Below, one piece after another: positions 20,321-64,000 of a stretch of 64,000 bases of DNA; within the stretch, counting starts at the first letter, position 1, and each line of letters begins with the position of its first letter. Both the position numbers and the translations under genes were made by a program. The DNA comes from Escherichia coli (GTDB lineage Bacteria; Pseudomonadota; Gammaproteobacteria; Enterobacterales; Enterobacteriaceae): NCBI RefSeq assembly GCF_045037415.1, contig NZ_CP173438.1; one strand, given 5' to 3'. Below the pieces are notes generated by a model, which made no database searches, was not told where the DNA came from, and was given only the letters and a program-made list of their open reading frames with translations.

Positions 20321-20410
20321 CGTCATCTTCTCTATAAAAAAGAGCGTGGATTGGGTACAATCCCGCTCTTATCACCGCATTTTGACTAGCTCAATAAAAG
20401 AAATCAGACC

Positions 20411-21509
20411 ATGTTTGAAATTAATCCGGTAAATAATCGCATTCAGGACCTCACGGAACGCTCCGACGTTCTTAGGGGGTATCTTTGACTACGACGCCAA
20501 GAAAGAGCGTCTGGAAGAAGTAAACGCCGAGCTGGAACAGCCGGATGTCTGGAACGAACCCGAACGCGCACAGGCGCTGGGTAAAGAGCGTTCCTCCCTC
20601 GAAGCCGTTGTCGACACCCTCGACCAAATGAAACAGGGGCTGGAAGATGTTTCTGGTCTGCTGGAACTGGCTGTAGAAGCTGACGACGAAGAAACCTTTA
20701 ACGAAGCCGTTGCTGAACTCGACGCCCTGGAAGAAAAACTGGCGCAGCTTGAGTTCCGCCGTATGTTCTCTGGCGAATATGACAGCGCCGACTGCTACCT
20801 CGATATTCAGGCGGGGTCTGGCGGTACGGAAGCACAGGACTGGGCGAGCATGCTTGAGCGTATGTATCTGCGCTGGGCTGAATCGCGTGGTTTCAAAACT
20901 GAAATCATCGAAGAGTCGGAAGGTGAAGTGGCGGGTATTAAATCCGTGACGATCAAAATCTCCGGCGATTACGCTTATGGCTGGCTGCGTACAGAAACCG
21001 GCGTTCACCGCCTGGTGCGTAAGAGCCCGTTTGACTCCGGCGGTCGTCGCCACACGTCGTTCAGCTCCGCGTTTGTTTACCCGGAAGTTGATGATGATAT
21101 CGATATCGAAATCAATCCAGCGGATCTGCGCATCGACGTTTATCGCGCATCCGGCGCGGGCGGTCAGCACGTTAACCGTACCGAATCTGCGGTGCGTATT
21201 ACTCACATCCCAACCGGGATCGTGACCCAATGCCAGAACGACCGTTCCCAGCACAAGAACAAAGACCAGGCCATGAAGCAGATGAAAGCGAAGCTTTATG
21301 AACTGGAGATGCAGAAGAAAAATGCCGAGAAACAGGCGATGGAAGATAACAAATCCGACATCGGCTGGGGCAGCCAGATTCGTTCTTATGTCCTTGATGA
21401 CTCCCGCATTAAAGATCTGCGTACCGGGGTAGAAACTCGCAACACGCAGGCCGTGCTGGACGGCAGCCTGGATCAATTTATCGAAGCAAGTTTGAAAGCA
21501 GGGTTATGA
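20411..21509 (+). CDS. prfB: Peptide chain release factor 2 (requires programmed +1 frameshift)
   Basis: ATG opens a 25-codon frame ...AGG GGG TAT CTT TGA C; the +1 frame continues as [11 protein letters not shown]... into track ORF 20628..21509; GGQ motif ([13 protein letters not shown]) present. Joined product about 365 aa. Confidence 0.93.
20476..20490 (+). other. prfB programmed +1 ribosomal frameshift site (internal SD + CUU UGA C)
   Basis: Sequence agggggtatctttgac: SD-like AGGGGG, 3-nt spacer, slippery CUU followed by in-frame UGA. Confidence 0.9.
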
Positions 21510-52543: not shown

Positions 52544-53023
52544 TTACTTTGTTTTCTCGCAATCCAGAACTGTATTTACAATCATCTGATACCCCGTGCA
52601 GCGACAAAGATTTCCCGCCAGTCCACGACGAATTTCCGTAATGGTTAATGGCTTCTCGCGTGGTTTCGCCAGCATTGCCGTGGTAGCCATAATCAGGCCC
52701 GGCGTACAAAACCCGCATTGCACTGCACCAGATTTCGCATAAGCCAGTTGGACATGAGAAAGTTTACCGCCTTTCGCTTCACCTTCCAGCGTGCGGATCT
52801 CTTTTCCTTCAGCCCAGGCCGCAAGGAATAAGCAACTGTCTATCGCAGTGCCGTCGACCAGCACCGTACAGGCACCACATTCACCCACGCAGCACCCTTG
52901 TTTGACACTTAGCAGTCCTTGTTCGCGGAGTAATTCCGAGAGCGGCGTGCCTGGTGCGGCGTGAAGCTGAAAAGGCATCCCGTTAATGGTGCATTCGATG
53001 GTAATTGTTTCGCTGTGATTCAT
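52544..53023 (-). CDS. xdhC: Xanthine dehydrogenase Fe-S subunit
   Basis: 159 aa; 2Fe-2S cysteine motifs [11 protein letters not shown] and CGFCTPG. Confidence 0.93.
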
Positions 53024-53897
53024 TGCAATTTCCCCCCGCCGCGGCGACGGCTTCGCTAATCACTTTTTTGGTCATCGTCTGGATGAGATGCAGACGAAAC
53101 TCTTTACTGGCCCGCCATGACGAACGCGGGGCGACATCTTGCAGGACTGATTCGCTGATGGCTTCCAGCGTTTGCAGGTTTAATGGCGCATTTTGTGCAG
53201 TCTGTTCGGCATGTTGGCAGCGAATCGGCGTTGGCGCGGCAACACCAAATGCCAGGCGTAATTCGCTGAAATTGCCGTTATCCAGTCGGCAATGTGCGGC
53301 GCAGCCAATTGTTGAAATATCCATTGCGTCGCGCATGGCATATTTAAAATGCGCGCTGCCCGCGTGTTCTTTCGGCTGTGGCGGAAAATGAAAGGCGACA
53401 AGGATTTCGTCATGCTCAAGAGACACTTTGCCCGGCCCGGTGTGAAAGCCATTAATCGGGACGAAACGAACACCGCGCGGGGAGTGGATCTCCAGTTTCG
53501 CGTCATAAATTAGCGTTGGCGTGGCAGAATCTGCGCTGGTGGCACCGTTGCAAATATTTCCGCCGTAGGTGGCGACATTACGGATCTGCGGCCCGGCGAT
53601 TGATGCAGCCGCAGCACATAACGCCGGGAGATGACGTTGAGTTACAGGATCTTCAATGAGCTGGGTAAATGTCGTTGCAGAGCCGATACGTAGCGCGCCA
53701 TCTTCCGCCAGCGTAATTCCCCGCAGCTCCGCCAGATTATGAATATCAACAATATGGCGATAACGGTCATTGTGATGGTGAAGCTGTATCAGTACGTCAG
53801 TGCCACCGGCGAGCAGTTTGGCCTGCGGGTTGTCAGTCAGCAGGTTGATGGCATCGGCAAGGGTTGCTGCGCGATGGTAAGAAGCAAAATCAAACAT
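52983..53897 (-). CDS. xdhB: Xanthine dehydrogenase FAD-binding subunit (304-aa reading frame here, 41-nt overlap with xdhC)
   Basis: ORF track gives 304 aa ending ...[22 protein letters not shown]; I recall the K-12 protein as 292 aa, so the C-terminus appears altered (see findings). Confidence 0.85.
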
Positions 53898-53907
53898 GAT
53901 GTTATCC

Positions 53908-56166
53908 TCAAATCAATCCTGCCAGATGGAATTCTTCATATAATCGTTTTGGCGTTAGCGGCAGTGTATTGATTGCAACACCGGTAGCCATCTTCACCGC
54001 GTTACGAATAGCAGCGGCTACAGGAATTATGGGTGGCTCACCCAGTGACTTATGTCCGTATGCGGATTGCGGCTCATTGATTTCGACGAACGCGCTTTCC
54101 AGTTGTGGCAGATCCGGCATGGTCGGCATTTTGTAATCCAGCAGATTGGGGTTACGGACCACGCCGCTTTTCGCATCGATGATCATCTCTTCAAATAGCG
54201 CCCAGCCAATGCCCATCCCCATTCCGCCGTGTACCTGACCTTCTGCCAGCAGCGGATTAAGAATATGGCCCGAATCATGAACGTTGAGGATGCGGTTGAT
54301 GGTTACTTTACACAGTGCAATATCGACCGTCAGATCAACAAAGGTACAGCCAAACGCCGGTGGGTTAGTGGTGGTTTTGATGGAGCTTTCGGCAGAGAGC
54401 TGCCCGCCGCGTTCAGGGTGGTAGAAAGCGTCCATCGCCAAATCTTTTAACGACATTAACGGCTCTTCCGGTCGTTCAACCAGCACGATATGGCCTTTTA
54501 TCAGGGTCAGATTCATCGCTGACTGATGTAGCATGACTGCGGCGTGAGCGATGATTTTCTCTTTTAATAACAGTGCCGCACTGCGCAGCGCAGGCGCGGC
54601 AACATAGCTCTGACGTGAGGCAAATGCGCCGGGGTCGAATGGTGTAACGTCGGTGTCTTGTGTCGAAATTACGCGGACATCGCTGACCGGAACTCCCACG
54701 GTTTCTGCCACCATTTGCGAGAACACGGTGTCGGCACCCTGGCCGATTTCCGTCGCGCCGCTTTGCACGTTGATGGTTCCATCCTGATTCATCAACAGGC
54801 GCGCGCCTGCTATTTCTACGCCGACAGGCCAGGTGTTAGAGGTGTAGCTAAAACAGGCGACGCCAACGCCACGACGTAAATTGCCTTGCTGGTTCTGGCA
54901 CTCTGCACGGCGTTTTTCCCATTCAAAGATTTTCCGGCCTTTTTCAAGACACTCCGGCAACCCTGCGCTGTAAATACGTTTTCCCGTGAGCGGATTAGCA
55001 TCTCCTTCGCGGGCGGCGTTGCGTAAACGAATTTCAACAGGATCAATACCTAACGCTGTCGCGGCATCATCAAGCATAGACTCAACGGCAAATACGACTT
55101 GTGGCGCGCCATAACCACGCATCGCACCAGCCGAGGGGAGGTTGGTATAGCAGGTCTTTGAACTGTAAGCGTAGGCACAACGAGGATAAAGGTAAGCGAC
55201 TTTATTCCCCCCAGCAGAAGCAATGGAGTGCCCGTGAGATGCATAAGCGCCGGTGTTAGACAGAACATCCAGACTATAACCTTTCAATGTTCCGTCGCGG
55301 TTCACGCCCATTTGCCCGTCAATAGTAAAAGCGTGGCGGGTACGGGTTGCGAGGAAACACTCTTCACGGCTAAGAGAAACTTTCACCGGAATGCCGCCAA
55401 GTTTGCTTGTCAGGAATGCCGCCATTGGCTCTTCCAGTACATCCTGTTTATTACCAAAACCGCCACCGATAAACGGTTTGATGACTCGTACGCATGACCA
55501 GGGAATATCCAGCGCCTGACCAACCACGCGGCGAACAATGTGCGGGATCTGGGTGCTGGAAACGATGGTAATTCGCGAGTCATCCTCCATCCATGCCAGC
55601 GATGTCACGCTTTCCATATGACAATGTTGAATAACGGGCGTCTGATAGTGCCCCTGTACCTGGTAGTCGGCGGCATCGATTGTTTGTTGGACATTACCCG
55701 TCGACATCGTGCTTTGTTTCAGTAAATTGCCACCGTTATGGATTGGTGCAGCGTCTTCTGCCAGCGCCGCTTCTGACGAGGTGATAACGGGTAATTCTTG
55801 CCACTCAATGCTGACCAATTGCACCGCTTTTTCTGCCGTGAGTTCATCGCGGGCTACGACGATGGCAACGGCGTCACCATGATGACGAACATGACGCGTT
55901 AGCAGGGCACGATCGGCAGTATCGCGCTTGTTTTCGTCAAGTGTCCAGGCATGCCCTGCCGTGGCGAATGGGATTTCTGGCACATCTTCCCAGGTAAAAA
56001 TCGCCAGGACGCCCGGCAAACTCCTGGCTTGTTCATCATTAATACTTACGGCATAACCATGTGCGATAGGGCTACGTACATATTTCGCGTAACACATGCC
56101 CGCCATAACATAATCGTCAGTATATCGTGCCCGCCCGGTGACCTTAGCAATGGCATCGACGCGCAT
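53908..56166 (-). CDS. xdhA: Xanthine dehydrogenase molybdenum-binding subunit
   Basis: Track ORF 53908..56205; start MRVDAIAKVTGRARYTDDY gives 752 aa. Confidence 0.93.
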   Translation of the reverse strand: MRVDAIAKVTGRARYTDDYVMAGMCYAKYVRSPIAHGYAVSINDEQARSLPGVLAIFTWEDVPEIPFATAGHAWTLDENKRDTADRALLTRHVRHHGDAVAIVVARDELTAEKAVQLVSIEWQELPVITSSEAALAEDAAPIHNGGNLLKQSTMSTGNVQQTIDAADYQVQGHYQTPVIQHCHMESVTSLAWMEDDSRITIVSSTQIPHIVRRVVGQALDIPWSCVRVIKPFIGGGFGNKQDVLEEPMAAFLTSKLGGIPVKVSLSREECFLATRTRHAFTIDGQMGVNRDGTLKGYSLDVLSNTGAYASHGHSIASAGGNKVAYLYPRCAYAYSSKTCYTNLPSAGAMRGYGAPQVVFAVESMLDDAATALGIDPVEIRLRNAAREGDANPLTGKRIYSAGLPECLEKGRKIFEWEKRRAECQNQQGNLRRGVGVACFSYTSNTWPVGVEIAGARLLMNQDGTINVQSGATEIGQGADTVFSQMVAETVGVPVSDVRVISTQDTDVTPFDPGAFASRQSYVAAPALRSAALLLKEKIIAHAAVMLHQSAMNLTLIKGHIVLVERPEEPLMSLKDLAMDAFYHPERGGQLSAESSIKTTTNPPAFGCTFVDLTVDIALCKVTINRILNVHDSGHILNPLLAEGQVHGGMGMGIGWALFEEMIIDAKSGVVRNPNLLDYKMPTMPDLPQLESAFVEINEPQSAYGHKSLGEPPIIPVAAAIRNAVKMATGVAINTLPLTPKRLYEEFHLAGLI

Positions 56167-61660: not shown

Positions 61661-62422
61661 ATGATTTTAAGTGCATTTTCTCTCGAAGGTAAAGTTGCGG
61701 TCGTCACTGGTTGTGATACTGGGCTGGGCCAGGGGATGGCGTTGGGGCTGGCGCAAGCGGGCTGTGACATTGTTGGCATTAACATCGTTGAACCGACTGA
61801 AACCATCAAGCAGGTCACGGCGCTGGGGCGTCGTTTTTTAAGCCTGACCGCCGATCTGCGAAAGATTGATGGCATTCCAGCACTGCTGGATCGCGCGGTA
61901 GCGGAGTTTGGTCATATTGATATCCTGGTGAATAACGCCGGATTGATTCGCCGCGAAGACGCTCTCGAATTCAGCGAAAAAGACTGGGACGATGTCATGA
62001 ACCTGAATATCAAGAGCGTATTCTTCATGTCTCAGGCAGCGGCGAAACACTTTATCGCGCAAGGCAATGGCGGCAAGATTATCAATATCGCGTCAATGCT
62101 CTCCTTCCAGGGCGGGATCCGTGTGCCTTCTTATACCGCATCAAAAAGCGGTGTGATGGGCGTGACGCGATTGATGGCGAACGAATGGGCTAAACACAAC
62201 ATTAATGTTAATGCGATAGCTCCGGGTTACATGGCGACCAACAATACTCAACAACTGCGGGCAGATGAACAACGTAGCGCGGAAATTCTCGACCGCATTC
62301 CAGCTGGCCGTTGGGGACTGCCGAGTGACCTGATGGGGCCGGTGGTGTTCCTTGCCTCCAGCGCTTCAGATTATGTGAATGGTTATACCATTGCCGTGGA
62401 TGGCGGTTGGCTGGCGCGTTAA
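61661..62422 (+). CDS. kduD: 2-dehydro-3-deoxy-D-gluconate 5-dehydrogenase (SDR family)
   Basis: 253 aa; SDR motifs TGCDTGLG and YTASKSGV (YxxxK). Confidence 0.94.
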   Translation: MILSAFSLEGKVAVVTGCDTGLGQGMALGLAQAGCDIVGINIVEPTETIKQVTALGRRFLSLTADLRKIDGIPALLDRAVAEFGHIDILVNNAGLIRREDALEFSEKDWDDVMNLNIKSVFFMSQAAAKHFIAQGNGGKIINIASMLSFQGGIRVPSYTASKSGVMGVTRLMANEWAKHNINVNAIAPGYMATNNTQQLRADEQRSAEILDRIPAGRWGLPSDLMGPVVFLASSASDYVNGYTIAVDGGWLAR

Positions 62423-62736
62423 TTCATTCCTCTTACTTTTATGACCCTGTCGCATGGCAGGGTTTTTTATACCTGTAGATCATCATAATCCATATCATGG
62501 TTATGAAATAATCCATATCAATTATCAATTGATGAACTTTATGAATTTTATCTGCTTTAAAATTAGGTGGTTAATAATAATCTCAATAATTCAACTTAAT
62601 TTGAAAATTGGAATATCCATCACATAACGACATGTCGTAGCAATTTAATCCATATTTATGCTATTTCCGACCTGACACCTGTGTGAATTGTTCACGTATT
62701 TTTTCACTATGTCTTACTCTCTGCTGGCAGGAAAAA

Positions 62737-64000
62737 ATGGTTACTATCAATACGGAATCTGCTTTAACGCCACGTCCTCTGCGGGATACGCGGCGTATGA
62801 ATATGTTTGTTTCGGTAGCTGCTGCGGTCGCAGGATTGTTATTTGGTCTTGATATCGGCGTAATCGCCGGAGCGTTGCCGTTCATTACCGATCACTTTGT
62901 GCTGACCAGTCGTTTGCAGGAATGGGTGGTCAGTAGCATGATGCTCGGTGCAGCAATTGGTGCGCTGTTTAATGGTTGGCTGTCGTTCCGCCTGGGGCGT
63001 AAATACAGCCTGATGGCGGGGGCCATCCTGTTTGTACTCGGTTCGATAGGGTCCGCTTTTGCGACCAGCGTAGAGATGTTAATCGCCGCTCGTGTGGTGT
63101 TGGGCATTGCTGTCGGGATCGCGTCTTACACCGCTCCTCTATATCTTTCTGAAATGGCAAGTGAAAACGTTCGCGGTAAGATGATCAGCATGTACCAGTT
63201 GATGGTCACTCTCGGCATCGTGCTGGCGTTTTTATCCGATACAGCGTTCAGTTATAGCGGTAACTGGCGCGCAATGTTGGGGGTTCTTGCTTTACCAGCA
63301 GTTCTGCTGATTATTCTGGTGGTCTTCCTGCCAAATAGCCCGCGCTGGCTGGCGGAAAAGGGGCGTCATATTGAGGCGGAAGAAGTATTGCGTATGCTGC
63401 GCGATACGTCGGAAAAAGCGCGAGAAGAACTCAACGAAATTCGCGAAAGCCTGAAGTTAAAACAGGGCGGTTGGGCACTGTTTAAGATCAACCGTAACGT
63501 CCGTCGTGCTGTATTTCTCGGTATGTTGTTGCAGGCGATGCAGCAGTTTACCGGTATGAACATCATCATGTACTACGCGCCACGTATCTTCAAAATGGCG
63601 GGCTTTACGACCACAGAACAACAGATGATTGCGACTCTGGTCGTGGGGCTGACCTTTATGTTCGCTACCTTCATTGCGGTCTTTACGGTAGATAAAGCAG
63701 GGCGTAAGCCGGCGCTGAAAATTGGTTTCAGCGTGATGGCGTTAGGCACTCTGGTGCTGGGTTACTGCCTGATGCAGTTTGATAACGGTACGGCTTCCAG
63801 TGGCTTGTCCTGGCTCTCTGTTGGCATGACGATGATGTGTATTGCCGGTTATGCGATGAGCGCCGCGCCAGTGGTGTGGATCTTGTGCTCTGAAATTCAG
63901 CCGCTGAAATGCCGCGATTTTGGCATCACCTGCTCAACGACGACAAACTGGGTGTCGAATATGATTATCGGCGCGACCTTCCTGACACTGCTTGATAGCA
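62737..64000 (+). CDS. araE: Arabinose:H+ symporter (MFS), 5' part; 3' end outside window
   Basis: ATG at 62737 opens a frame running to the window edge: [49 protein letters not shown]...; MFS sugar-porter motifs. Not in the ORF track because there is no stop in the window. Confidence 0.9.

Follow-up and report, generated by a model that had tools for sequence, protein, structure and literature searches.

The xdhB gene of the analysed window, a stretch of 64,000 nt of Escherichia coli DNA, very probably carries a genuine, inherited deletion of one nucleotide belonging to a sublineage of ST131, which leaves the core of the XdhB protein intact and is most likely neutral or mildly deleterious rather than a knock-out. 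The deletion lies in a purine tract, rewrites the tail of XdhB and turns the ATGA overlap with xdhC into an out-of-frame overlap of 41 nt, as the original prediction had proposed for a 1-nt homopolymer indel. Both the list of open reading frames (ORFs) and the junction sequence bear out the predicted XdhB of 304 aa with a stop 41 nt inside xdhC (Table 1), which is a fixed difference in sequence rather than a statistical signal.

The genes xdhA, xdhB and xdhC are co-directional and comprise one operon, in which xdhB is located between the genes of the Mo-binding and the 2Fe-2S subunit. On the coding strand, the junction is spelled GCGGC-GGGGGG-AAA-TTGCAATGA, which is read in xdhB as the codons GCG GCG GGG GGA AAT TGC AAT GAA and so on; the minus-strand readout of the junction is GCGGCGGGGGGAAATTGCAATGAATCAC. 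For xdhA, a length of 765 aa was found in the window as well as in the PGAP annotation of ST131 (WP_000388187.1), compared to 752 aa (2259 nt) in the annotation of K-12. This difference results from the choice of the start codon and not from the sequence.

Table 1. Features of the xdhB-xdhC junction and its surroundings in the window.
Feature	Position	Strand	Remark
Purine tract G6A3	53029..53037	-	plus strand TTTCCCCCC; one base shorter than G7A3 (ST131) or G6A4 (K-12)
xdhB, FAD-binding subunit, 304 aa	52983..53897	-	residues 1-289 normal, residues 290-304 replace KLQ; ORF list
New xdhB stop TAA	52983..52985	-	38 nt past the first base of the xdhC start codon ATG
Ancestral xdhB stop TGA (within ATGA)	53020..53022	-	now out of frame and read through
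xdhC, 2Fe-2S subunit, 159 aa	52544..53023	-	coding sequence unchanged; ORF list
Overlap of xdhB and xdhC, 41 nt, differing frames	52983..53023	-	made by the deletion; both genes on the minus strand; ORF list
Internal in-frame ATG (Met16 of XdhC)	52976..52978	-	4 nt after the new xdhB stop; possible site of reinitiation
xdhA, Mo-binding subunit, 765 aa	53908..56205	-	first gene of the operon, intact; ORF list

The xdhB gene of K-12 MG1655 comprises 879 nt and encodes 292 aa with the end ...AAAGGKLQ, which matches the length and tail that the original prediction had given for K-12, and it shares a 4-nt ATGA overlap with xdhC. Compared to the normal junctions of K-12 (b2867/b2868) and ST131 (WP_000459203.1), the window showed the same operon, the same genes and the same XdhC, and residues 1-289 of its XdhB are those of WP_000459203.1. 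The differences are confined to the junction, where the tract is one base shorter, the protein has 304 instead of 292 aa with a 15-residue tail in place of KLQ, and the 4-nt ATGA has given way to an out-of-frame overlap of 41 nt. Two normal spellings of the tract exist, namely G6A4 in K-12 (GGG GGA AAA) and G7A3 in ST131 (GGG GGG AAA), to which the nearest relatives of the window belong, for example strains S12 and JJ1886. Both are 10 nt long and synonymous, and both lead to ...GGKLQ-stop with the ATGA overlap.

The frequencies of the spellings were determined by exact 72-mer searches (an exact 71-mer for G6A3) in those 5280 complete E. coli genomes in which the locus is present. The 10-nt spellings G6A4 and G7A3 were found in 4486 and 573 genomes, respectively, the 9-nt allele G6A3 of the window in 18, and an 11-nt G8A3 in 0 of these genomes. 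About ten genomes match the 73-base G8A3 query along its whole length, with a single mismatch; they were rejected as G8A3, the two that were inspected reading G7A4. Altogether, variants in tract length amount to approximately 28 of the 5280 genomes. In 146 of 5426 complete E. coli genomes no match whatever to the xdhB-xdhC junction was obtained, and the locus is therefore missing from some lineages and dispensable.

To identify the lost base, two segments of the ST131 genome JJ1886 that match the window were joined and compared with it base by base. The window (64,000 bases) and JJ1886 (64,001 bases) differ solely in one G of the tract. Since this single G is the only difference, the event was a change from G7 to G6. 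Replication slippage on these seven G at the 3' end of xdhB would explain how an ST131 sublineage passed from G7A3 to G6A3. The loss of an A was rejected as the actual event for the lineage of the window, as its ST131 relatives carry G7A3. The repair by one extra A that the original prediction had suggested does restore the exact K-12 spelling G6A4, but it does not reverse what happened in this lineage; a missing A describes the tract correctly only in comparison with K-12, and in the case of the separate allele of K-12 type described below. Slippage in a homopolymer that causes a 3' frameshift and extends a gene into its neighbour is a textbook mechanism, and long co-directional overlaps that originate from the loss or bypass of a stop with extension of the 3' end form a general class. 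The window resembles this class in that the upstream gene passes its old stop and runs into the downstream gene, and differs from it in that the origin can be traced to a single base in an otherwise identical lineage over 64 kb.

The original prediction had allowed for either a genuine indel or an assembly error, and of these two a genuine mutation is strongly favoured by the identity to JJ1886, the state of the other homopolymers, and the recurrence of the allele in 13 complete genomes and on 157 contigs. The window contains 66 homopolymer runs of at least 6 nt, and the other 65, including another C7 at 56830, agree with JJ1886. Since these runs are concordant, the window assembly is not noisy at homopolymers. 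A generally noisy assembly was likewise rejected, as there is one difference to JJ1886 in 64 kb.

An identical 251-nt junction with G6A3 is shared by 13 complete genomes of ST131 type. They represent at least five countries, with carriers from Denmark (urine), Poland (two, urine), Taiwan (three) and Thailand (five, blood) in addition to MSB1_4E and ECKH-100. Eight of these 13 carriers, sampled by separate studies across several countries, were compared to the window over approximately 22-24 kb; six were identical and none comprised an extra indel. The exact matches were WGS1363, 446, 463, UID2404240038, MSB1_4E and ECKH-100 in a first comparison and 446 and UID2309220015 in a second one, and the two Polish carriers showed one private substitution each and no indel. 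A ninth carrier (Thailand) contains a recombinant araE-kduD segment and has still kept G6A3. In UID2309220041 (L023, G6A3 ST131, Thailand), 104 clustered substitutions were determined over the 21.9-kb locus, and the 40 that were listed are all located at approximately 62296-63945 of the window (araE-kduD). Judged by this clustering, the stretch looks like an imported recombinant segment beside an otherwise identical region.

The exact 304-aa protein corresponds to the RefSeq record WP_094248867.1, which is present on 157 contigs (NCBI, ENA, Logan). In the 13 complete ST131-type genomes and in UID2309220013, this protein and the junction are identical to the window without any difference. The record is indexed in 317 collection blocks, in 247 of which the longest carrying contig is shorter than 1 Mb, which is, as expected, a size typical of (short-read) draft assemblies. 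On the ST131-type flank, G6A3 was found in 13 genomes compared to 573 with an exact G7A3, while at most five carriers occur among approximately 4,700 other genomes, resulting in an about 20-fold enrichment on the ST131 flank. Because of this enrichment and the absence of G8A3, the distribution fits clonal inheritance of the ST131 G6A3 allele and not a random error in base calling. In a search of window positions 1-25000 and 40000-64000 against 5426 genomes, no SNP that separates the G6A3 carriers from other ST131 was found.

It is very unlikely that the isolate is truly G7A3 and that the consensus dropped one G, even though the under-calling of homopolymers is a typical error of long reads and several other assemblies with G6A3 contain further indels nearby. 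Noisy long-read assemblies among the carriers (L003, L005, L006 and L008) showed 2-5 gap positions per 6.9 kb, and neighbouring genes are frameshifted in ECZP248 (G6A3) as well as in H2 (G7A4). In strain 439 (L021, Taiwan), a second homopolymer deletion from G6 to G5 at window position 55207 shifts the frame of xdhA. The sister strains 446 and 463, which are identical to the window over 40000-64000, do not show this deletion in the compared regions, and it represents either assembly noise or a second real slippage in the same operon. Individual G6A3 records may accordingly be errors in part. Against an error in the window itself stand the 65 concordant runs and the lack of any other difference to JJ1886, the eight carriers without extra indels, the presence of the exact protein on mostly draft-sized contigs, and the enrichment on the ST131 flank together with a G8A3 allele that was never seen. 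Altogether, an assembly error is almost certainly not the source of the variant.

Slippage in the tract is not restricted to this sublineage, as tracts of 9, 10 and 11 nt all occur naturally and each of them in more than one genetic background. A K-12-type allele with one base less (WP_000459183.1, 304 aa, 124 contigs) is found in Z1322HEC0001, Z1322HEC0009 and ECZP248 among others. It shares the 9-nt G6A3, the 15-residue tail and the 41-nt overlap with the window, but has an independent origin on the G6A4 background. Compared to K-12 over 1501 nt, Z1322HEC0001 differs by the gap alone, and the K-12-like lineage has therefore lost an A from A4. G6A3 also occurs in at least one further lineage, which is about 0.65% divergent from the window (L004, L007); UID2309220013 (L014), another carrier, differs from L007 at 9 of 3071 positions. 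The original prediction had set its reading against the case that reference XdhB proteins likewise comprise 304 aa with this tail. Such records exist, but in a trivial sense only, as WP_094248867.1 and WP_000459183.1 are rare alleles and 292 aa is the norm.

In the opposite direction, the +1 allele G7A4 results in an in-frame fusion of XdhB and XdhC with 451 aa, which is present in approximately ten complete genomes, for example RM11911 (L009:674-2029) and H2 (L010), and in two backgrounds with 41 differences in 3073 positions. PGAP annotates xdhB of this allele as a pseudogene ("incomplete; missing C-terminus") and accepts the -1 allele as a normal CDS. Laboratory evolution of a K-12 mutS strain has produced the same +1 change, described as xdhB 860insG (A287fs), which was reported for a recoded strain as well (PMC6706779). 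It involves the same tract and the same one-base slippage at the 3' end of xdhB as in the window, but with opposite sign and with the fusion as a result. After reconstruction of 860insG, the growth rates were only slightly changed (PMC6706779).

This recurrence raises the question of a contingency-type switch, in which slippage would toggle between a coupled state (10 nt), an uncoupled state with long XdhB (9 nt) and a fused state (11 nt), and in which the variants would be under selection and more than just tolerated. The natural occurrence of all three lengths in more than one background each, the two -1 alleles on 157 and 124 contigs, and the recurrence of the +1 allele in two studies of laboratory evolution, where an effect on fitness was suggested by the authors, would agree with it. 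Nonetheless, a switch is highly unlikely. With about 28 carriers among 5280 complete genomes, variants in length are rare. The tract itself is short, and owing to the synonymous G/A change between the two normal spellings its run length is not conserved. Several tract lengths occur, as in phase-variable loci, but the placement differs from that in known phase-variable genes and is not that of an on/off switch, since of the 292 codons the tract covers 287-290 and a change in length affects three terminal residues and the stop position alone. Furthermore, the differences in growth rate of the +1 mutant lie within about one standard deviation (PMC6706779), and the mutational bias of a G6-G7 run is expected to lead to recurrence by itself. 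The related idea that the 10-nt purine tract acts as a mutational tuning knob for the subunit stoichiometry of xanthine dehydrogenase, with three states reached by slippage, is equally improbable. If it were true, some state would be favoured in certain niches, as for example the urinary tract or the bloodstream in the case of ST131, and the existence of two independent -1 alleles in more than 100 assemblies each would be explained.

At the protein level, the Pfam domains FAD_binding_5 (PF00941) at residues 6-173 (E 1e-50) and CO_deh_flav_C (PF03450) at residues 183-283 (E 1.5e-27) were both found with the full model covered. The two complete domains and the position in the operon place the protein in the XdhB family of FAD-binding (medium) subunits. 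Solved homologues (CutM with 287 aa and the FAD subunit of nicotinate dehydrogenase) align over residues 6-285 and end 2-3 residues later. As the XdhB of E. albertii is one residue shorter, the extreme tail is not strictly conserved. The frameshift begins at codon 290 and thus past both domains, where KLQ is exchanged for the 15-residue tail; since it starts there, the fold of XdhB is untouched. Neither a folded domain nor catalytic residues are lost, as would be the case for an inactivated xdhB, and PGAP treats the gene as a normal CDS. From this domain layout we infer that XdhB with the new tail stays functional.

The changed geometry at the junction likely weakens the coupling of stop and start. 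For coupled stop/start pairs, an overlap or distance between about -8 and +10 nt was reported (PMC10666635); the normal ATGA alleles lie within this range, whereas the 41-nt overlap of the window does not. In native E. coli gene pairs, termination-reinitiation is reduced by 80-100% once 38 nt separate stop and start (PMC10666635), although in that study the stop had been moved upstream of the start, and applying the figure to a 41-nt overlap is an extrapolation. In the window, ribosomes that translate xdhB do not terminate at ATGA but cross the start of xdhC and stop 38 nt further, and the coupling by termination and reinitiation, which normally helps to match the output of XdhC to that of XdhB, is probably lost or weakened.

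XdhC could still arise by independent initiation. The XdhC protein is the same in carriers of G6A3 and G7A3 (WP_001016598.1), and the G run, which is likely a Shine-Dalgarno-like element of xdhC, is located 8 nt upstream of the xdhC ATG with unchanged spacing. The predicted duplex with the anti-Shine-Dalgarno sequence amounts to -9.4 kcal/mol for G6 compared to -10.1 kcal/mol for G7. Because the coding sequence, the ATG and the spacing of the G run are unchanged and the duplex is barely altered, independent initiation at xdhC should persist. RNA folding, which was carried out without a shuffled control, predicts for all four alleles that the G run pairs with a region located approximately 70 nt inside xdhC, with an unpaired probability of 0.14-0.28. 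Reinitiation at Met16 could in addition give a truncated XdhC of 144 aa. An XdhC of this length starting at Met16 does appear in public gene calls (P0033, 8 contigs), which are annotation only and no proof of a product, and these calls may arise since gene callers avoid the 41-nt overlap.

Our best estimate from the sequence is a lowered ratio of XdhC to XdhB with retention of the enzyme. As the ratio would be lower but the enzyme would be kept, the net effect of the allele is most likely neutral or mildly deleterious, and not that of a knock-out.

The loss of coupling could be compensated by recoding, either by a -1 slip of the ribosome at G_GGA_AAU, resulting in ...GGNLQ-stop, or by insertion of a G during transcriptional slippage, resulting in ...GGKLQ-stop, and both would bring back the coupling at ATGA. 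The heptamer G_GGA_AAU indeed fits the pattern X_XXZ_ZZN in the xdhB frame of G6A3, a -1 shift at this point leads straight to TTG CAA TGA, and "saviour" frameshifting at indels is a recognised phenomenon (PMC5009743). However, such compensation is extremely unlikely. Runs of six G are poor substrates for transcriptional slippage. For the ribosomal slip, the move from AAU to AAA is not cognate for tRNA-Asn, while efficient -1 motifs in E. coli need cognate re-pairing in the A site (V_VV.A_AA.R), and even the best motifs reach about 0.3% frameshifting without a stimulator (PMC4066793). No stimulator was identified at the junction, the motif is not conserved, as the immediate ancestor G7A3 contains no in-frame heptamer, and xdhB is not among the 69 candidate frameshift clusters of PMC4066793. 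Based on these published motif data, rescue by a -1 frameshift at G_GGA_AAU was judged unlikely. The K-12 spelling itself comprises an in-frame heptamer G_GGA_AAA of the efficient V_VV.A_AA.R class, at which a -1 slip would enter the xdhC frame; since the ST131 spelling lacks the heptamer, a conserved function is unlikely.

The G6A3 allele itself was already known, since RefSeq holds it as WP_094248867.1, named XdhB protein, and the window represents a further copy. A literature search for xdhB together with ST131 found nothing relevant. The allele is probably an ordinary lineage polymorphism with little biological effect, but it is a clean case of a one-base slip at the 3' end of a gene creating a long gene overlap. 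It further illustrates how annotation pipelines treat such slips, as the -1 form passes for a normal protein and the +1 form is labelled a pseudogene. Provided that a single origin is borne out by a phylogeny, G6A3 may serve as a single-base marker for an internationally spread sublineage of ST131. In addition, the 4-nt overlap, the 41-nt overlap and the in-frame fusion comprise a natural allelic series, by which the influence of stop/start geometry on the subunit ratios of a heteromeric enzyme can be tested.

Besides the xdh operon, the window contains prfB (approximately 20400-21500, position according to the JJ1886 annotation), which is known for its programmed +1 frameshift, the whole ygeV-ygfT cluster of purine and urate catabolism, and ssrS, encoding 6S RNA, each of them without any difference to JJ1886.
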